DNA of 64,000 nucleotides from Candidatus Poribacteria bacterium (GTDB taxonomy: Bacteria; Poribacteria; WGA-4E; WGA-3G): NCBI GenBank assembly GCA_012267415.1, contig JAAXGN010000008.1, forward strand, positions 719-64,718. The letters run 5' to 3'. Shown here piece after piece: positions 37,171 through 64,000 of the stretch (positions are counted from its first letter, which is position 1; each line of letters starts with the position of its first letter). The position numbers were made by a program, and so were the translations under genes. The notes under the pieces are model-generated. The model was not told the DNA's origin. It ran no database searches and saw nothing but the letters and a program-made list of their open reading frames with translations.

Positions 37171-37207
37171 GACTTATACGATTTCTAATTGATAATGTCT
37201 CTTTTTT

Positions 37208-37231
37208 GTAGCACAAACTGTTAGTTTGTGC
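37208..37231. repeat. GTAG-footed hairpin (TGTAGCACAAACT family)
   Basis: GTAGcacaaactgttagtttgtgc, with a partial second copy gtagcacaaa at 37251-37260. The same family occurs at 58480-58534. Confidence 0.7.
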
Positions 37232-56406: not shown

Positions 56407-57972
56407 TATCAATTGAGACATCGTCTTCGGTACTGACAGGAGGACATCTCCAGCTATAAGACCGTGCATTCCTGTCTTATCTGCTGCGATGTCGCCTGCT
56501 AATCCATGGATATAGACACCGAGTATCGCTGCTATATCAACTGATAGGTTTTGTGCTATCAGTCCAGTGATAATCCCTGTTAACACATCTCCCATTCCAG
56601 CTGTCGCCATTCCCGGATTACCAGTTGAGTTGATCCACACATCACCCTTGGGGGTTGCTATAATAGTAGGTGCACCTTTAGATACGAGGGTTACTTCGTG
56701 CTGTTTTGCAAATTCTTCTGCTGCAGAAATCCCATCTAACGCTAATGTTTGTATGGCCGTTCCTGTTAGACGAGACATCTCACCTAAATGCGGTGTTAAG
56801 ACTGTTTCCGATTCCAGCATTGAGATAAGTTCTTTCTCCTGTGCTAATGCGTTCAATCCGTCCGCATCAATCACCATCCGCAAACCGAGTTCCTGTCTTC
56901 TGTTTTCACGTATCAGTTGATGAACAAATCTTACTGTCTCAGGATGTTGAGAAAGACCGGGACCAAGAGCCAAGACAGATTTTGTTTTTTCTGCATGTTC
57001 CAATATAGGCAATACTGCTGATTCTGCTATACTTCCTGTATCCGTTTCTGGCATAGGTAATGTCATTACTTCAGAAAGCTTAACCTCCATGATGGAATTC
57101 AGACTTTTCGGTATTGCCAGTGTTACCAATCCTGCACCTGTACGTAATGCTGCTTCACTTGTAAGTGCTGCCGCGCCTGTCATTCCGGTAGCACCTGCAA
57201 TGACTAAGACGCGCCCATAAGTTCCTTTATGAGATGCGTTGAAACGACGTGGCATCCAATCAATAGTTTGTTCTTTTGTTGTCCAATTTACGTTAATGTT
57301 CTGAGCATCAATTACCTGTTGTGGAAACCCTATGTCGATTATTTCTAAATTACCTGCAAGTGCTGTCCCAGGTTGAACCAATAACCCCCTTTTTGGCAAA
57401 CCTATCGTGATTGTTGTATCTGCTTTGATGCAAGTTCCCAACGGGTGACCCGTATCTGCATTTAAACCCGACGGTAAATCAACAGCGAGAATAGGTATAA
57501 AGTGGTCGTTGATAACGTCTATGATCTTCGCGATAGGTTCGCGCACTTCACTGTGCAATCCTGTACCGAAGATAGCATCTACAAGCAGGTCGCATTTCGC
57601 AACGAGATTATGTGATTTTTTCAGTGCATCATCTGTCACCACTTCTTTAATGTGCAACCCAAGTTTTTCCACTATGTCAAGATTGACCCGTGCTTCTCCA
57701 GTAAATGTCTCAGGGGACGAAACAAGAAAGATAAGCACCTCGTGTCCAGCATGTGCAAGTTGTCGTGCAATGACCAAACCATCTCCGCCATTGTTTCCCT
57801 TTCCGACAAATATGCCGACACGTTGTGCCTTCGGAAAGTGTTGTTTAATCTTGCGGACGATTTGACTCCCCGCAGTCTCCATCAGTACAATACCAGAGAT
57901 GCCAATTTCATTAATAGTATGACTGTCAATTTGACGCATCTGCGCTGCAGTCACCACTTTCATGCAGCCCAT
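56392..57972 (-). CDS. nnr: bifunctional NAD(P)H-hydrate epimerase/ADP-dependent dehydratase (YjeF)
   Basis: N-terminal GKGNNGGDGLVIARQL and a C-terminal carbohydrate-kinase-like GDVLTGIITGL; 526 aa. Confidence 0.88.
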   Translation of the reverse strand: MGCMKVVTAAQMRQIDSHTINEIGISGIVLMETAGSQIVRKIKQHFPKAQRVGIFVGKGNNGGDGLVIARQLAHAGHEVLIFLVSSPETFTGEARVNLDIVEKLGLHIKEVVTDDALKKSHNLVAKCDLLVDAIFGTGLHSEVREPIAKIIDVINDHFIPILAVDLPSGLNADTGHPLGTCIKADTTITIGLPKRGLLVQPGTALAGNLEIIDIGFPQQVIDAQNINVNWTTKEQTIDWMPRRFNASHKGTYGRVLVIAGATGMTGAAALTSEAALRTGAGLVTLAIPKSLNSIMEVKLSEVMTLPMPETDTGSIAESAVLPILEHAEKTKSVLALGPGLSQHPETVRFVHQLIRENRRQELGLRMVIDADGLNALAQEKELISMLESETVLTPHLGEMSRLTGTAIQTLALDGISAAEEFAKQHEVTLVSKGAPTIIATPKGDVWINSTGNPGMATAGMGDVLTGIITGLIAQNLSVDIAAILGVYIHGLAGDIAADKTGMHGLIAGDVLLSVPKTMSQLIYSEL

Positions 57973-58191
57973 CCTATAGTTTATACCTTAAAAAGTGACG
58001 TGAGTTTCAATATGAATATGTGAAAGAGTATAGCAGTATTTGAACCAAGCGTCAACAGCAAAGTTATATTAAAGGTGTGTATAATTTTTGCTACTTGTCT
58101 GAACCAGGATTTGCAGGATAAGGTGGGAAGAGCAGAAAGATGGAAGGATGCATAGGCGTCAATTTAAGGAAATTAATTTGTTCTTGATTTG

Positions 58192-58272
58192 TCTTCAGTC
58201 CCGTAGGGACGATATGTTTATAGAAGAACGTGCAGTTAACCCTCTTTAGTCCCATAGGGACGATATGTTTAT
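58192..58272. repeat. Two 30-bp direct repeats separated by 21 nt
   Basis: tcttcagtcccGTAGggacgatatgtttat (58192-58221) and tctttagtcccatagggacgatatgtttat (58243-58272), with 2 mismatches. Each contains the small palindrome gtccc-nnn-gggac. Confidence 0.8.
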
Positions 58273-58440
58273 GTTATTGCCTAAAATAGCTGAAAACGTT
58301 CGGCAGCCACAGTAATTTTCAGGGATTTTTTTCGTTTTTTGCCCGTTTTGACTGAAATTTAGATGAAGATTTTTTCTTCACTTGCACCCTTTTTAGTCGA
58401 AAACTGTGTCTTTAATTATAGAGGGTATGACATATCGACT

Positions 58441-58606
58441 TGAAAGTATAGTGGAATGGACAATTAATGGGACACTTCTGTAGTGCAAACTTTTAGTTTG
58501 CGTCTCATCGGCACAAACTAAAAGTTTGTGCTACAATTTCTGTTGTTCGTTATGGTCCCGAAGCAGGTTTATCAAAGTGTCCCAATAATTTGAAAGTTCA
58601 CTATAT
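58441..58606. mobile_element. MITE-like element with imperfect terminal inverted repeats and two inverted GTAG hairpins
   Basis: The left end is tgaaagTATAGTGgaatggacaattaaTGGGACAC (58441-58475). The right end is GTGTCCCAataatttgaaagttCACTATAt (58577-58606). The internal hairpins are GTAGtgcaaacttttagtttgc (58480-58501) and the inverted copy gcacaaactaaaagtttgtgCTAC (58511-58534). Confidence 0.65.
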
Positions 58607-58715
58607 TTATCAAACTCACCTTATACTAAAGAGAATGTATCCCCTTATGGACAGATTTTTTTTGAAAGGAGAGCATCTGTGATGGAACATACAATCTTAC
58701 AAGGAGACAAATTTT

Positions 58716-59000
58716 ATGGTTTTCAAGAAATCTTTTGATACAGAAAGAGAAGCAAAGCAACAAGCTTGGGATGATTTACCAGTGTCAATGAAACCTGACA
58801 ATATTGACGTTCATACTGTACACACTTCTGTGCCTGTAAGTGAAACAGCTATCGTTATCAGCACGCCAGAAGATTGGATAAATACACCCAATTCAGGCAT
58901 GCTCTACATCATTGAGCATACCTTATCCACTTGTAGTATTTGGGTTAAAGGTAACAAAACAATAAAAAATGGGAAACTGAAATCGCACTTAATCCCGTAG
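58716..59000 (+). CDS. hypothetical small protein
   Basis: 94-aa ORF with AAGGAG 8 nt upstream of the ATG. No recognisable domain. Confidence 0.45.
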   Translation: MVFKKSFDTEREAKQQAWDDLPVSMKPDNIDVHTVHTSVPVSETAIVISTPEDWINTPNSGMLYIIEHTLSTCSIWVKGNKTIKNGKLKSHLIP

Positions 59001-59116
59001 CATACGGATATGATGATGCAATAGAATACTTGTTAAGTGCAGGGTGGTCTCGGCATGATATACCATTCCACTGCTTTCCTATAAATGGTTTGACAATCCA
59101 CGATACCTTTAAGTAC

Positions 59117-59145
59117 TTGAATATATTAATACATCTTACTATAAT
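59117..59145 (+). promoter_or_regulatory. near-consensus sigma70-type promoter for the PLD-SNF2 operon
   Basis: TTGAAT (59117-59122), a 17-nt spacer, then TATAAT (59140-59145), 45 nt upstream of the 59190 ATG. Confidence 0.5.
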
Positions 59146-59189
59146 AGAGTAAAACTTATAGTAATAATTCAAAACAGACTTGGAGAAAT

Positions 59190-62100
59190 ATGCAAATACC
59201 GACAATAATTGATAATGTTAATGATAACACCCTCCAAAAAGTATTGGAAACTCTTTTGATAAAAAGTGTCAACTTAGATATAGCAACCGGAACATTTGAA
59301 ATAGGCGCATTTCTGTCACTTGGAAAGGCATGGCAACATCTTGATCGCATTCGCATTCTTATGGGAGACGAAACGTCAAAACGCACAAAAGAACATATAA
59401 TTCAAGCATTACAAACAGCTACAGAGGATAGTATTGAATCTGAAAAAGAGAAAGACGATTCTATACCGGAACTCGCAGATGTTCGCAGGGCAATACGACG
59501 TGGTAAGATAGTCGTTCGTGTTTATGATCGTGCAAAATTTCACGCGAAACTCAACATAATGCAAACCGAAGAATCAAGGCCTTTCAACTTTGCTACCTAC
59601 GGTAGTTCTAACTTTACCTTACCTGGCCTGACCCAAAATATTGAATTAAATACATTCACTACAGACCGCACGCATATTGACGAGCTTCAAGGTTGGTATA
59701 ATGAACGTTGGGAGGAAGGAGCTGAAGTTAAAGCGGAGCTGCTTCGAACAATTCAACGACACCTAAAAGAATATCCACCATTCACAGTCTATGCCAAAGC
59801 ACTACAAGCATATTTTGAAGGACGTGAAAAACCTGCTGACGAATGGGAAGAAAATGAATCTGTTATATACCCCACACTTTCACGATACCAAAAAGATGGT
59901 TATCACGCGGCTCTTCAGATTGCAGATACGTGGAACGGTGCACTTATCTGTGATGGGGTTGGTAGTGGTAAAACATACATAGGTTTAATGATACTTGAAC
60001 GTGCCTTAAGAGAAAACAAACGTGTACTACTCATAACACCGAAATCAGTTGAGGAAAGCGTTTGGAAAAGTCAGATTAAACGGCAACTCCAAAAAAAATA
60101 TGGTCGTTTTCTTCGAGAGAACTATGATCTCAAACGACATACGGACCTCGGACGCAAAGGTGGAATCAGTGAAGATGATCTTGCGTATTTTCGTGAACAT
60201 AAGGATGTTATCATTATAGATGAAGCACACCATTTTCGGAATGCAAGCTCCAATCGTGGGAAAATGTTGATGGATATTGCCAGAGGAAAAGAACTCTATT
60301 TACTTACTGCCACGCCAATCAATAACAGTTTAAACGATATCTATCACTTGATAAACTATTTCGGACAGAATCGTAGGACTTATTTCTCGCGAATCGGTAT
60401 TCATGATTTCCGTAAACACTTTCGCGATATTGAAAAACGACTTGAGGATGTAGAAACGGAAATTGCTGAACAGGTTGAAGAAGAAGATTTCCTGCGACAA
60501 AACCCGATACTAAAACAGGTACTTATTCAACGTAGTCGCAAATACATCAAAGAGTCCGAACAGAAGTCGGGTGTTGACATCCTTTTTCCCAAACGTGTGA
60601 TTGAACCAACAGTAGATTATTCACTCAAAAAAGTCTACGGTTCACTCTATGATGAACTCAGGATCGCTTTTGACAGAAATTATCCGTTTATTAATCTGGC
60701 AATCTACAACACAGTCAGGTATCACAGAAGTCCGGAAAGGCAGCTTGAAAATCGTCAGAAACAGATTGTCGGTCTCATTCGAACACTTGTGCTAAAACGT
60801 TTGGAAAGTTCATGGCGGTCATTTGAAGTCACAATTGAGAACTTACTCCTAAAGATGGCAGAATGGCTTAAAAAGTATGCACCTGAACGTTTTGTAATAT
60901 GGGAAAATACAAACCGCAGAGAGTGGAGTGTGGCACAAGATCACATCAAGGAACGCCTCGAAGCAGATGGAATCCAATACGAACCCAGTGAAGAGGAAGA
61001 TGACATTGAATCAATCGAAATTGAAGATGATTTTATTCCTGAAGATCATGATTTAGAAAGATTGTTTAGAGATGTTGTAGTCGATATGAACTTCTTAACA
61101 CTCATCCTTAGCAAAATCTATAAGTCCTTCTATGCTGACGAGGTAGGAGGCGAACCTGCCACAGAAAAAGATGACAAGCTACAGCAACTCATAAAACTCT
61201 TAAAATCCGCACCTGATGAAAAGAGACTCATCTTTACCGAATTCTGTGACACCGCGCGGTATCTTAACAAACAACTGATGAATGCTGGTGTTACGGACAT
61301 TGAACAAATTGATAGTCGACGTAAAGTGAATCGAGAGGAAGTAATACAGCGATTTTCCCCCTTCTATAACGGGAAAACACCTTGCCAAAGCGGAAAACCT
61401 GTTAACACAGTCATCACAACAGATGTGCTTGCCGAGGGGCTAAACTTACAGGATGCGTCCGTTATCATCAACTACGACCTACATTGGAATCCAGTGAGAC
61501 TCATGCAACGTATCGGTAGATTAGACCGACGACTTGACGCAAACATTGAAGCGAAGCTTAGCCGCACTGACCCAACCGTTCATGTCTGGAATTTCCTACC
61601 CCCTGAGGAGCTTGAGGATATCCTTAAGCTTCGGAAACGGGTTGATGGCAAAATCCTACGCATCAGCCGCACACTTGGTATTGAAGGAAGGTTTGTTACC
61701 CCTGATGACGATAATGAAACCCTTAGACTATTCAATGAACGTTATGATGGTAGAGAAAGTACTGAGGAATTGATGAACCTTGAACGCCAACGTATCTCCG
61801 AAGCGCACTCTAAGTTGTGGCATCAACTGCCAGACCTACCAAAACGTCTCTTTTCAGGCAAAGATGTGAATATCAAACCTCCACCGATGCTTAATCGAGA
61901 TGGTGAGATAATTCCCCTCAAACGTATTGGGGATATAGGTGTTTTCTGCTGTTATGAGATGCCCATAGTTGAGAAACCCAAAGATGAGAAATCAAAAGGT
62001 GAAATTAAGTGGTACTTCTATGATGTTGAAAATGACCAAGTTATTGAAGATGTTAGGGACATTTGGCCCGAAATCCGCTGTGATATAGAAACGAAACGTT

Positions 62101-62234
62101 ATACTGAAGAAGGACCAGGCGAACTTAGAGATGCACTCAAAAAAGTTGAAAAGCACATTCAAGGGTATCTCATGAAAATACAAGCACCGATGGGTGCGAA
62201 ACCTAAACTCATTGCATGGATGGAAATTTGCTAA
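59190..62234 (+). CDS. fusion of an N-terminal PLD/HKD-like nuclease domain and an SNF2-family helicase
   Basis: N-terminal LDIATGTFEIGAF...IRILMGDE...FHAKLNIM...YGSSNFT (PLD-type HxK...GSxN). Helicase motifs DGVGSGKT, IIIDEAHHFRN, LLTATPINN, TDVLAEGLNLQD and QRIGRLDR, then a C-terminal extension of about 280 aa. Confidence 0.85.
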   Translation: MQIPTIIDNVNDNTLQKVLETLLIKSVNLDIATGTFEIGAFLSLGKAWQHLDRIRILMGDETSKRTKEHIIQALQTATEDSIESEKEKDDSIPELADVRRAIRRGKIVVRVYDRAKFHAKLNIMQTEESRPFNFATYGSSNFTLPGLTQNIELNTFTTDRTHIDELQGWYNERWEEGAEVKAELLRTIQRHLKEYPPFTVYAKALQAYFEGREKPADEWEENESVIYPTLSRYQKDGYHAALQIADTWNGALICDGVGSGKTYIGLMILERALRENKRVLLITPKSVEESVWKSQIKRQLQKKYGRFLRENYDLKRHTDLGRKGGISEDDLAYFREHKDVIIIDEAHHFRNASSNRGKMLMDIARGKELYLLTATPINNSLNDIYHLINYFGQNRRTYFSRIGIHDFRKHFRDIEKRLEDVETEIAEQVEEEDFLRQNPILKQVLIQRSRKYIKESEQKSGVDILFPKRVIEPTVDYSLKKVYGSLYDELRIAFDRNYPFINLAIYNTVRYHRSPERQLENRQKQIVGLIRTLVLKRLESSWRSFEVTIENLLLKMAEWLKKYAPERFVIWENTNRREWSVAQDHIKERLEADGIQYEPSEEEDDIESIEIEDDFIPEDHDLERLFRDVVVDMNFLTLILSKIYKSFYADEVGGEPATEKDDKLQQLIKLLKSAPDEKRLIFTEFCDTARYLNKQLMNAGVTDIEQIDSRRKVNREEVIQRFSPFYNGKTPCQSGKPVNTVITTDVLAEGLNLQDASVIINYDLHWNPVRLMQRIGRLDRRLDANIEAKLSRTDPTVHVWNFLPPEELEDILKLRKRVDGKILRISRTLGIEGRFVTPDDDNETLRLFNERYDGRESTEELMNLERQRISEAHSKLWHQLPDLPKRLFSGKDVNIKPPPMLNRDGEIIPLKRIGDIGVFCCYEMPIVEKPKDEKSKGEIKWYFYDVENDQVIEDVRDIWPEIRCDIETKRYTEEGPGELRDALKKVEKHIQGYLMKIQAPMGAKPKLIAWMEIC

Positions 62235-62273
62235 TCTGTATTGCTTATTTTTAGAAGGAGGAAGTCTATCAAG

Positions 62274-62711
62274 ATGAAAAACGACATTTCACATGAATCT
62301 AATACTATTCACGATTTTGAATCAATAATATCTCTTTTACGAAATAGGTTGAACTGGCCAATTTCTGATAACCAATCAAATTTTGATGATCTTACCCATT
62401 TCTGGTCTCCTGAGAACCTTGAACTTGATCCTAAAACCGAGAAACGCATTATTGGTTGTTGGCAGGTAAGAATTCTTAATCTCAAATTTTTCAATAGTAA
62501 GCAACCGTGGGGAATTTTCATCGTCCAATTTGAAAATAATGTACATATTGATAAATCAAGCACTCTCTTGAAAAGAGTTTTAAGAGGTCTTGTTGATAGG
62601 CGGGGTCGTAGTGCTTCACTTCCTTTCTGGCGTTACGACAGACTCCTCTTTATCTGCACAACAGAAGATTTTCAAAATTTCGGTTTTGTACTTCATGGGA
62701 AAGAAAAATGA
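62274..62711 (+). CDS. stand-alone paralog of the N-terminal domain of the downstream methyltransferase
   Basis: 146 aa from the ATG at 62274 (AGGAGG upstream). It aligns with residues 1-150 of the 62774 ORF: QPWGIFIVQFEN / QPWGIFFLQFNS, RVLRGLVDRRGR / RVLRGLVERRDR, and LLFICTTEDFQNFGF / LLFICTTPNYQQFAF. Confidence 0.7.
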   Translation: MKNDISHESNTIHDFESIISLLRNRLNWPISDNQSNFDDLTHFWSPENLELDPKTEKRIIGCWQVRILNLKFFNSKQPWGIFIVQFENNVHIDKSSTLLKRVLRGLVDRRGRSASLPFWRYDRLLFICTTEDFQNFGFVLHGKEK

Positions 62712-62773
62712 CCTTATCGTTGATGATTGTACTGAACTGAACAATTTTAAATTGAAAGCTTGAGGGAAAACGT

Positions 62774-64000
62774 ATGCCCAATATTACACCAAACGACATC
62801 CAAAACATCCGTGACTTTGATACGCTTTTAGACTTCTTCCGTGATAAACTTGATTGGCACATCCCCGAAGACTTTGAACTTGAAGATATGACTTTTTCCT
62901 GGTCCGCCGAAGACCTTGACCTTGACGAACCCACTGAAGAACGCATCTTCTATTGCAGACAGTTACCACCTTTCCCACCCATCCGATATACATTGTTTGG
63001 AGAAGCAACACAACCGTGGGGCATATTTTTCCTACAATTTAACAGCGAACATATCTATCGAACTACACTACGTCGTGTGCTGCGGGGATTGGTAGAAAGA
63101 CGCGATCGTGACCCAAACCTACCTTCTTGGAAACATGACCAACTCCTCTTTATCTGTACCACACCCAACTATCAACAATTTGCTTTCGCCAATTTTGCTG
63201 CAAATGAAAATTGGAGACGCTCAGTCCTTTCCATATTCTCTTGGGAACAGGGAGATACACACATCCGAACGCTATGTGAGTATAACCTACCTGCACTTGC
63301 TTATCCAAGCGATGGATTTCCAAATGACGAAGCATGGCTGAACGCGTGGAAAGAAGCATTTGATGTTGAGATCGTAACCGATAAGTTTTTCGCCGACTAT
63401 CAACGCGTTTTTTCACGGGTTGAAGCAGCTGTAACAGGTATTCCCGATAGCCTTGAAGAAAAAAAACGACTCTATACGCAACGGCTTTTTAACCGATTAA
63501 TGTTCTTACGGTTTATTGAAAAGAAGGGATGGTTGACCTACAACGGTAACCGTGAATACTTGCGCGCCATGTTTGATGCTACGGAAGCAGAAACCGATGA
63601 AAACTTTCTCAATGACCGACTCTATTGGGCTTTCTTCAATGGACTTGGTACTCCTGGGGGTGCACCTAACAACATACCTGAGGTTGTTGAACGACGGGGA
63701 GAAGTCCCATTTCTCAACGGTGGACTCTTTGAGATGCAGGACGACGATGCGCGCGGCACTGTCCATATTCCTAACGATAAATTTGACGAAATCCTAAAGC
63801 TTTTTGAAAGGTATAACTTCACGGTAACCGAATCCACACCGCTTGACGTTGAGGTAGCAGTAGACCCGGAAATGCTTGGTAAGGTGTTTGAAGAACTTGT
63901 TACCGGTAGGCACGACACAGGTAGCTACTATACCCCGCGTCCTGTTGTCTCCTTTATGTGTCGCGAAAGTCTGAAAATCTGCCTCCAGAATAAAACCGAT
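62774..64000 (+). CDS. COG1002/Eco57I-type (type IIG / PglX / DrmMI-like) N6-adenine DNA methyltransferase, N-terminal 409 codons (3-prime end outside window)
   Basis: The ORF is not in the supplied track because it has no stop in the window; I translated it by hand from the ATG at 62774 (GAGGG upstream). Motifs LFNRLMFLRFIEKKGWL, FLNGGLFE, ERYNFTVTES, VDPEMLGKVFEELV and GSYYTPRPVVSFM. The catalytic motifs would lie beyond 64000. Confidence 0.8.
   Translation, partial: MPNITPNDIQNIRDFDTLLDFFRDKLDWHIPEDFELEDMTFSWSAEDLDLDEPTEERIFYCRQLPPFPPIRYTLFGEATQPWGIFFLQFNSEHIYRTTLRRVLRGLVERRDRDPNLPSWKHDQLLFICTTPNYQQFAFANFAANENWRRSVLSIFSWEQGDTHIRTLCEYNLPALAYPSDGFPNDEAWLNAWKEAFDVEIVTDKFFADYQRVFSRVEAAVTGIPDSLEEKKRLYTQRLFNRLMFLRFIEKKGWLTYNGNREYLRAMFDATEAETDENFLNDRLYWAFFNGLGTPGGAPNNIPEVVERRGEVPFLNGGLFEMQDDDARGTVHIPNDKFDEILKLFERYNFTVTESTPLDVEVAVDPEMLGKVFEELVTGRHDTGSYYTPRPVVSFMCRESLKICLQNKTD

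Follow-up and report, generated by a model that had tools for sequence, protein, structure and literature searches.

On the plus strand at the end of a 64,000-nucleotide (nt) stretch of DNA from a Candidatus Poribacteria sponge symbiont (contig JAAXGN010000008.1; this whole stretch is called the window below), three reading frames follow one another. The first, an open reading frame (ORF) of 1014 amino acids (aa), joins a PLD-type nuclease to an SNF2-type ATPase and is referred to as the helicase. The second is a small ORF and the third encodes an adenine methyltransferase (methylase). Helicase and methylase probably form a restriction-modification system of two subunits, and the methylase begins with a previously undescribed domain, termed N-dom here. 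An earlier interpretation made from the DNA letters (the sequence-only reading) had proposed a restriction-like locus in which one protein unites PLD nuclease and SNF2 translocase, with an Eco57I/COG1002-type methyltransferase beside it. Domains, intact motifs and conserved linkage of the genes bear this out.

The window was identical to a metagenome contig from ENA (L001; handles of this kind denote individual loci) over the 4811 nt which both share. L001 ends 1.2 kb beyond the window and still lies within the methylase gene, whose frame can be followed to 803 aa; therefore, the end of the operon was read from relatives. One genome per species was scanned and the 80 best loci were annotated using our own script, which combines ORF calling, phmmer and profile hidden Markov models. 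To see whether a third gene is conserved, the remaining ORFs in the flanks of 82 loci were clustered. Conservation values for the helicase refer to an alignment of 77 full-length homologs.

The ORFs described by the sequence-only reading were found at their coordinates, with all motifs it had quoted. The N-terminal domain of the helicase scored 38.1 against PLDc_2 in Pfam (gathering score 27), which confirms its placement among PLD nucleases, and it shows the HxK motif followed by GSxN which defines the PLD/HKD superfamily and is kept in the homologs. The canonical Asp of HxK(x)4D is not conserved. Motifs I, II (DEAH), III and VI assign the ATPase core to the SNF2 family. FHAK (H118/K120, the catalytic His and Lys), GSSNFT, Walker A, DEAH and motif VI were each at least 90% conserved. 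Sequence matches of the helicase in the PDB were SNF2 remodelers alone (CHD1L, a Sulfolobus Rad54-like protein, RapA and INO80), and MtsD, SauUSI, LlaBIII or another Type ISP enzyme did not appear among them. The best PADLOC model was PDLC01075, 'HKD+Snf2' (8.8e-66, aa 6-838). A modified-base reader domain was not recognisable with Pfam. Behind the ATPase core follows a conserved C-terminal extension; an AlphaFold2 model of the C-terminal 225 aa had a mean pLDDT (predicted local distance difference test) value of 50.3, was unusable and was set aside.

Every methylase peptide quoted by the sequence-only reading lies in the third frame. The catalytic motifs which it had suggested to look for are present in the continuation of the frame on L001: motif I reads DPACGSGAYL and is located at aa 444, while GNPPYV is located at aa 616 (NPPY 617-620). 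In Pfam, the L001 methylase matched Eco57I (3.1e-39) and MmeI_Mtase (2.2e-11). Its full-length homologs have 1056-1066 aa and carry a TaqI_C specificity domain. Based on motif I preceding NPPY and on the C-terminal position of the specificity domain in full-length relatives, the protein is a predicted gamma-class N6-adenine methyltransferase. Sequence matches in the PDB were CamA and M.BseCI and no others. Since the best PADLOC models are those named REase_MTase_IIG (E 7.9e-74), annotation pipelines will likely label this methylase as a Type IIG enzyme.

Features of the locus and of related loci. Positions refer to the window unless a locus handle is given; aa numbers refer to the helicase.
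Feature	Position	Strand	Remarks
PLD(HKD)-SNF2 gene (helicase)	59190-62234	+	1014 aa; predicted restriction/translocase subunit
PLD-like nuclease domain	59271-59711 (aa 28-174)	+	Pfam PLDc_2, E 1.7e-9; RE_NgoFVII, 2.9e-5
HKD motif FHAKLNIM, single; H118, K120	59538-59561 (aa 117)	+	motif search and alignment
GSSNFT (within YGSSNFT, aa 137)	59598-59618 (aa 138-143)	+	motif search and alignment
SNF2-type ATPase core	59874-61529	+	Pfam, PDB sequence matches, alignment
SNF2-rel_dom; Helicase_C	aa 233-453; aa 662-780	+	Pfam
Walker A, DGVGSGKT	59952-59975 (aa 255)	+	K261 is the lysine corresponding to MtsD K260
DEAH	60219-60230 (aa 344)	+	SNF2 motif II
TATP	60306-60317 (aa 373)	+	SNF2 core motif
QRIGRLDR (motif VI)	61506-61529 (aa 773)	+	SNF2 core motif
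Conserved C-terminal extension	61707-62231 (~aa 840-1014)	+	conservation 0.55-0.75 per 50-aa block
Small ORF, free-standing N-dom paralog	62274-62711	+	145 aa; AGGAGG site precedes ATG
Methylase frame	62774-64000	+	leaves the window without a stop codon
N-dom, ~145-aa N-terminus of the methylase	62774-63211	+	signature QPWGIFF at 63011-63031
Helical spacer and start of methyltransferase core	63212-64000	+	LFNRLMFLRFIEKKGW, FLNGGLFE, YNFTVTES, DPEMLGKVFEELV, GSYYTPRPVV
Promoter-like site TTGAAT-17-TATAAT	59117-59145	+	10 of 12 consensus matches; 45 nt before the helicase ATG
Viral or prophage pair	L095, L096, L097, L100, L101		IMG/VR; complete helicase and N-dom methylase
N-dom methylases with extra domains	L088:1276-5943, L089:4999-8970, L051:13916-18676, L091:16-4506		
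Gap inserts (1)	L005:13846-14405, L021:13009-13675, L035:12470-13234, L036:13130-13818, L051:13124-13796, L053:13103-13846		
Gap inserts (2)	L061:13120-13696, L018:13298-16974, L039:13120-14316, L085:3739-5597, L012:13219-16712		

The sequence-only reading had assumed that the rest of the operon lies outside the window and that the class of the system cannot be fixed for this reason. The closest relative, L004, contradicts this. Its helicase, 91% identical, lies among the same neighbours as in the window (YjeF, TPR, FGE-sulfatase and FG-GAP); the gene of this helicase overlaps the beginning of one for a 1066-aa methylase (Eco57I plus TaqI_C), after which unrelated genes follow on the opposite strand. 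In L005, the helicase is followed by a 181-aa paralog of N-dom, an inserted DUF4258 toxin-antitoxin pair, a 1057-aa methylase and then unrelated genes. Linkage in other genomes, whose absence would have refuted the sequence-only reading by its own account, was found: a methylase-specificity protein with N-dom lies downstream of the helicase on the same strand in 69 of the 80 loci, which cover more than 12 phyla including archaea. In all 69 loci the partner begins with N-dom, and it has ~1050-1590 aa when complete. Both genes have their own start and stop codon in each of these loci (69/69), and about 40 of the 69 gene pairs overlap or are separated by less than ~150 nt. In seven further loci the contig ends too early, and the last four comprise three with fragments alone (L017, L041, L084) and L011, whose partner is truncated by the contig end and was missed by the filter. 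Seen from the side of N-dom, a PLD-SNF2 gene was directly upstream in all three assessable proteins (the contig of a fourth was too short). The N-dom partner was also present on all five IMG/VR contigs having a helicase of this clade.

A conserved third gene was not detected. Among the ORFs flanking the 82 loci, no family occurred in more than nine loci, and the one found in nine is integrase-like. Neither DrmA, DrmB or DrmC, nor PglZ, BrxC, BrxL, DUF499 or DUF3780 formed a recurring family in these flanks, and the BREX proteins PglZ, BrxC/PglY and BrxA/B/L were absent from the neighbourhoods of the locus and its relatives. Thus, two observations which would have agreed with the sequence-only reading, DrmA/DrmB or PglZ downstream and a three-gene synteny in other genomes, were not made. 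The NCBIfam model DISARM_DrmD gave 125.4 bits for the helicase (cutoff 610) and DrmD_b 81.9 bits (cutoff 950); the PglX models of NCBIfam reached at most ~72 bits for the methylase against cutoffs of 400-900. Because the operon in L004 ends after the methylase, no conserved third gene is found in 82 loci and the DrmD and PglX matches stay below their cutoffs, the class can be assigned: the conserved unit is a self-contained two-gene module, to which an optional small third gene is added in Poribacteria. The pair on five predicted viral or prophage contigs, together with the integrase-like gene near nine of the genome loci, suggests horizontal mobility. Among the cultured hosts of the module are Desulfonema magnum and Rhodoferax antarcticus, as well as Sphingomonas sp. 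HT-1 and Aeoliella sp. SH292.

In relatives, the gap between helicase and methylase is a hotspot of insertions. Across 27 loci with gaps of 0.5-4 kb, no conserved gene was found in the gap, which holds unrelated inserts instead. Apparent toxin-antitoxin pairs occur there (the DUF4258 pair of L005 was recognised by Pfam, the others were judged on their sequences only), as well as ATPase-like genes and, in L012, four tandem paralogs of ~265 aa. The gap in Desulfonema contains a pair of 343 aa and 881 aa, resembling an AAA ATPase and a serine peptidase.

A profile of N-dom retrieved 599 clusters at 50% identity among 1.84 billion proteins. The domain was N-terminal in nearly all of the 150 matches listed, the full-length proteins having ~1000-1550 aa, and none of the 150 best N-dom proteins was a fused helicase-methylase chain. 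Residues conserved across phyla are W28, Q63, QPWGIF (80-85), R100, L103, W119, F126, F141 and W157; an acidic/lysine catalytic set is not among them. N-dom had no match in Pfam, NCBIfam or PADLOC. Its AlphaFold2 model was of moderate confidence (pLDDT 75.7), and since the best match in a Foldseek search of the PDB had an E-value of only 0.06 and a template modeling (TM) score of ~0.2, a fold could not be assigned. As it has neither an acidic/lysine catalytic set nor a match to a nuclease fold, N-dom is not the nuclease of Type IIG enzymes. A degenerate PD-(D/E)XK fold was considered as well; the predicted order of secondary structures is compatible with it, yet fold match and motif are both missing, and this was left as speculation. 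In the sample examined, N-dom occurs only beside the helicase clade with the conserved C-terminal extension, and the extension marks exactly those helicases whose methylase partner bears N-dom. Judging from this association, N-dom is a likely docking module for the helicase.

The sequence-only reading had noticed the small ORF and placed it correctly next to the helicase stop codon; its size and distance were corrected from 146 aa and 40 nt to 145 aa and 39 nt. What had been missed is its paralogy to the N-terminal part of the methylase and the frameshift it carries. It is 43% identical to the first ~140 aa of the methylase (E 5e-35) and had no match in Pfam, even at an E-value of 10, nor in PADLOC or NCBIfam. 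The frameshift lies near 62688-62692, close to the 3' end, so that the window copy is truncated; the ancestral last ~24 aa (FMGKKNDLIVDDCTELNNFKLKA) are found in the next frame up to 62763, 10 nt before the ATG of the methylase. Because the identical 145-aa product is encoded both on the ENA contig and in a Logan assembly made independently (SRR9219375), the frameshift is probably a genuine mutation and not an assembly error. Stand-alone N-dom proteins form a family of 160-190 aa with 70 clusters, and the few source names available are all Candidatus Poribacteria. In this phylum, such a protein is encoded between helicase and methylase also in L005, L006, L011, L016, L017, L022 and L033. The possibility that the small ORF is a remnant of a replaced methylase gene was ruled out by the conservation of this stand-alone family.

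The module behind N-dom is variable. In Poribacteria and scattered other lineages, an Eco57I-type methylase is joined to a specificity domain resembling TaqI_C. Most of the remaining lineages, including Desulfonema, Rhodoferax, Sphingomonas, Aeoliella and a Thermoplasmatales archaeon, have N6_Mtase and the specificity domain Type_ISP_C behind N-dom (Pfam, E down to 1.6e-79). In a model of a 1591-aa fused restriction enzyme-methyltransferase, which we take to be LlaGI-like, it is the half with the methylase and specificity parts that distant partners match; the Desulfonema partner matches a REase_MTase_IIG model of PADLOC with 2.7e-216. In a neighbour-joining tree of the helicases, computed without support values, the two types of partner were intermixed. 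Because the module varies, N-dom is seen as an adaptor that stays constant while the methylase-specificity cassette attached to it can be exchanged. Signs of cassette turnover are present in L033 (14548-23018), where two N-dom methylase genes, one of them broken, lie behind one helicase, in L005 (19496-19717), where a 73-aa N-dom fragment is found further downstream, and in L017 (7734-9862), where there are only fragments upstream and no intact methylase. At the C-terminus of some N-dom methylases, further domains are added which are characteristic of defence proteins (GmrSD_N/DUF262, SLFN_AlbA_2 or DUF7008).

A sister clade of PLD-SNF2 proteins with 27-31% identity occurs on five other viral contigs as well as on plasmids from Deinococcus, Microcystis, Nostoc and haloarchaea. 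For most of its helicases, the alignment with the window helicase stops near aa 830-840; those of Nostoc and L099 align further. N-dom was absent from the sister-clade loci examined, and on the four plasmids studied the methylase has a different position. In Deinococcus radiophilus pRadio5 (L093), Microcystis aeruginosa NIES-2481 p1 (L094) and a plasmid of Nostoc sp. C052 (L086), the order is reversed and a large N-6 methylase gene lies upstream of the helicase. Further defence genes, either DUF262 or a nucleotidyltransferase with a SLATT protein, are nested between methylase and helicase in loci of this clade. In the Nostoc locus, the methylase gene is directly preceded by an IS630 transposase gene, which may have caused a truncation of the methylase gene.

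That defence islands pair a PLD-helicase with a large methylase is already known as a theme. In the searchable literature, neither the two-gene family nor N-dom or its stand-alone paralog was found described; the nearest systems described are BREX-related ones and MANTIS. Other explanations of the locus were weighed against this background. The first holds that two independent systems lie side by side, a stand-alone Type IIG methylase with its own N-terminal nuclease and a SauUSI-like PLD-helicase. Type IIG enzymes (Eco57I and MmeI family) also combine methylase and specificity part in one chain, as reflected by the matches to Eco57I, MmeI_Mtase, TaqI_C and REase_MTase_IIG, the last being the PADLOC label even of the Desulfonema partner. 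They usually have an N-terminal PD-(D/E)XK nuclease, whereas the corresponding ~145 aa are without catalytic residues or nuclease fold match here; it is presumably the separate PLD-SNF2 protein that cleaves. SauUSI shows that Type IV enzymes of the PLD-helicase kind exist, with an N-terminal PLD nuclease and an SF2 ATPase in one chain. However, SauUSI has its own SRA-type reader, cuts modified DNA and has no methylase partner, whereas the window helicase lacks a recognisable reader domain and is linked to a methylase. Near-obligate linkage in both directions, a fixed gene order, frequent overlap of start and stop codons and the restriction of N-dom to the neighbourhood of N-dom-clade helicases make two independent systems improbable.

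According to the second explanation, the locus belongs to the MANTIS / Gao_RL / BREX-related type 2 systems (MtsABCD) and its effector uses a DUF499 ATPase and a DUF3780 protein encoded elsewhere. In these systems, the methylase MtsC is alpha-class with a central specificity domain. To our knowledge, activation of the MANTIS effector has so far not been reconstituted in vitro. The effector MtsD consists of PLD and SF2 parts and needs H122 (PLD) and K260 (Walker A) for restriction; one PLD site arises from two MtsD chains in a dimer, MtsD acts after site recognition by the methylase complex, it favours inverted site pairs and SauUSI is a structural relative (bioRxiv 10.64898/2026.09.23.753747). 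DUF499 and DUF3780 are the defining components of BREX-related type 2 systems (PMC12839542). The window helicase has the same architecture, an N-terminal PLD domain with a single HKD motif followed by an SF2/SNF2 ATPase, with the matching residues H118 and K261 at equivalent positions near 120 and 260; its best defence model is 'HKD+Snf2', and an adenine methylase which marks self DNA is paired with the effector in both cases. Nevertheless, a gene for the DUF499 AAA+ ATPase (MtsA) or the DUF3780 protein (MtsB) is absent from the window locus and from related loci, the small ORF has no Pfam match and the HmaA model matches only partially. Moreover, the methylase here is of the gamma class, as its motif I precedes NPPY, with a C-terminal specificity domain, the helicase has an added C-terminal extension and the partner carries N-dom. 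Because DUF499 and DUF3780 are missing and the methylase class differs, the system is not MANTIS, and the use of such proteins from elsewhere in the genome is judged very unlikely.

Little probability is also given to a role outside defence, as an epigenetic or chromatin-type regulator or as a repair module acting on the host chromosome. SNF2 proteins such as RapA have housekeeping roles, and the Poribacteria loci lie amid ordinary metabolic genes. Against this stand the conserved PLD active site, the patchy spread over more than 12 phyla, archaea and viral contigs, the turnover of methylase cassettes and the integrases, toxin-antitoxin pairs and other defence genes nested in or beside the locus.

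The least credible explanation is the one favoured by the sequence-only reading, namely that the locus is the 5' part of class 1 DISARM or of BREX with the remaining genes beyond the window: class 1 DISARM (DrmD, DrmMI and DrmABC) does place an SNF2 helicase beside an adenine methylase and includes a PLD nuclease, and PADLOC and NCBIfam give partial matches to DrmD, BrxH, DrmMI and PglX, but these stay far under the cutoffs (DrmD 125 vs 610, PglX ~72 vs 400-500), the DISARM nuclease DrmC is a separate protein whereas PLD is fused to SNF2 here, DrmA and DrmB are lacking, L004 and other complete loci stop after the methylase, and the flanks of the 82 loci show no recurring family of the helicase/DUF1998, PglZ or BrxC kind.

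The sites recognised by Type ISP enzymes are asymmetric; these enzymes methylate one strand, move along DNA using ATP and cut when two of them converge (PMC3874165). The gene order of the window locus is colinear with the single chain of such enzymes (LlaGI, LlaBIII), which contains a nuclease, an SF2 motor, a connector or coupler, a gamma-class N6-adenine methylase and a C-terminal specificity domain, and the partner in distant relatives carries Type_ISP_C. Asymmetric sites, methylation of one strand and ATP-dependent translocation before cleavage are predicted for the two-gene system as well. It differs in having two polypeptides instead of one, PLD/HKD instead of an Mrr-like PD-(D/E)XK nuclease, a motor from a distinct SNF2 clade with no sequence match to the solved Type ISP structures and, in the Poribacteria lineage, an Eco57I/TaqI_C module instead of Type_ISP_C; instead of the coupler, there are N-dom and the C-terminal extension. 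Since there are two chains and the nuclease is PLD rather than Mrr-like, it is not a Type ISP enzyme.

Taken together, we consider it probable that the locus encodes a compact two-subunit ATP-dependent restriction-modification system, resembling a Type ISP enzyme which is split into two chains and has an effector like MtsD of MANTIS. Subunit 1 would comprise the PLD(HKD) nuclease, the SNF2 ATPase as a translocase on double-stranded DNA and the C-terminal extension, and would be the same kind of effector as MtsD. Subunit 2 would consist of N-dom, a helical spacer, the gamma-class methyltransferase and a C-terminal target-recognition domain; it is predicted to read a short asymmetric site and to methylate one strand of host DNA. 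At an unmethylated site, subunit 2 would recruit or activate subunit 1 by means of N-dom, probably against the C-terminal extension, and the SNF2 motor would then move along the DNA. As each chain has one HKD motif, two chains must pair to give one PLD active site; therefore, cleavage is probably performed by a dimer or upon the meeting of two complexes, with one HKD half contributed by each, which would favour inverted site pairs, a preference also of Type ISP, Type III and MANTIS systems. The free N-dom protein of Poribacteria is most likely a modulator, which might compete for the same docking surface or bridge it.

Several points weigh against this reading. The model of N-dom is of moderate confidence and has no structural relative, and the role of the domain is a prediction accordingly; its contact with the helicase protein is deduced from genomic association. 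The intermixing of partner types comes from a simple tree lacking support values and is suggestive only. That the PADLOC model 'HKD+Snf2' (PDLC01075; C3a139) represents the MtsD/Gao_RL family was judged from the model description. MANTIS requires an additional AAA+ loader to methylate and to restrict, and the two-gene system may differ in this respect or may need host factors. Finally, the methylase of the window genome itself is visible to aa 803, where the contig ends.

Upstream of the helicase, the sequence-only reading had noted a near-consensus promoter behind a repeat-rich gap of 1.2 kb. Both hexamers of TTGAAT-17-TATAAT are present, and the stretch 59116-59189 around them and the longer one 59116-59300 are each 94.6% identical to L004. 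However, 11 promoter-like sites were found in the region vs 14.8 expected in shuffled sequence; because this number does not exceed chance, little weight can be given to the match by itself, and the site is a putative promoter. The repeats in the gap were likewise found, but most of the gap is an insertion of 1044 nt (58072-59115) between yjeF and the helicase promoter region, which is absent from L004 and is not part of the defence system. Within the insertion, a 30-nt sequence with a GTCCCRTAGGGAC hairpin is present twice as a direct repeat, at 58192-58221 and at 58243-58272. They represent a lineage-specific dispersed repeat, since many copies occur in the Poribacteria loci L005, L007 and L011. 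An orphan ORF of 94 aa in the insertion (58716-59000) had no homolog. A nested palindrome at 58444-58608 has outer arms of 34 nt and a hairpin with 22-nt arms at 58479-58535; one of its arms is repeated at 37206-37231 of the window. A search of 57900-64000 with Rfam gave only sub-threshold matches to miRNA hairpins, located on the palindrome, which may be a small mobile or structural repeat.

How a helicase-nuclease is coupled to a methylase is an active mechanistic problem in Type I, Type ISP, Type III, BREX, DISARM and MANTIS systems. The two-gene module offers the PLD-SNF2 effector in its simplest setting, with one partner protein, no AAA+ loader and a delimited candidate domain for the coupling, and it is spread widely over many bacterial phyla, archaea and viral contigs. 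For annotation, it implies that the N-terminus of these methylases is not a nuclease although they match models labelled as self-sufficient Type IIG enzymes, the neighbouring helicase being the likely cutter. More tentatively, and with rather low confidence, N-dom could be a portable licensing adaptor: any gamma-class module acquiring it would harness the PLD-SNF2 protein without an AAA+ loader, on which MANTIS and BREX depend, and the free paralog would act as a decoy or regulator. If this were true, the free paralog would tune restriction against modification, e.g., by limiting self-cleavage after replication or while a methylase cassette is exchanged, and the family would provide a minimal, reprogrammable ATP-dependent restriction platform of two proteins together with a new protein-protein coupling domain.

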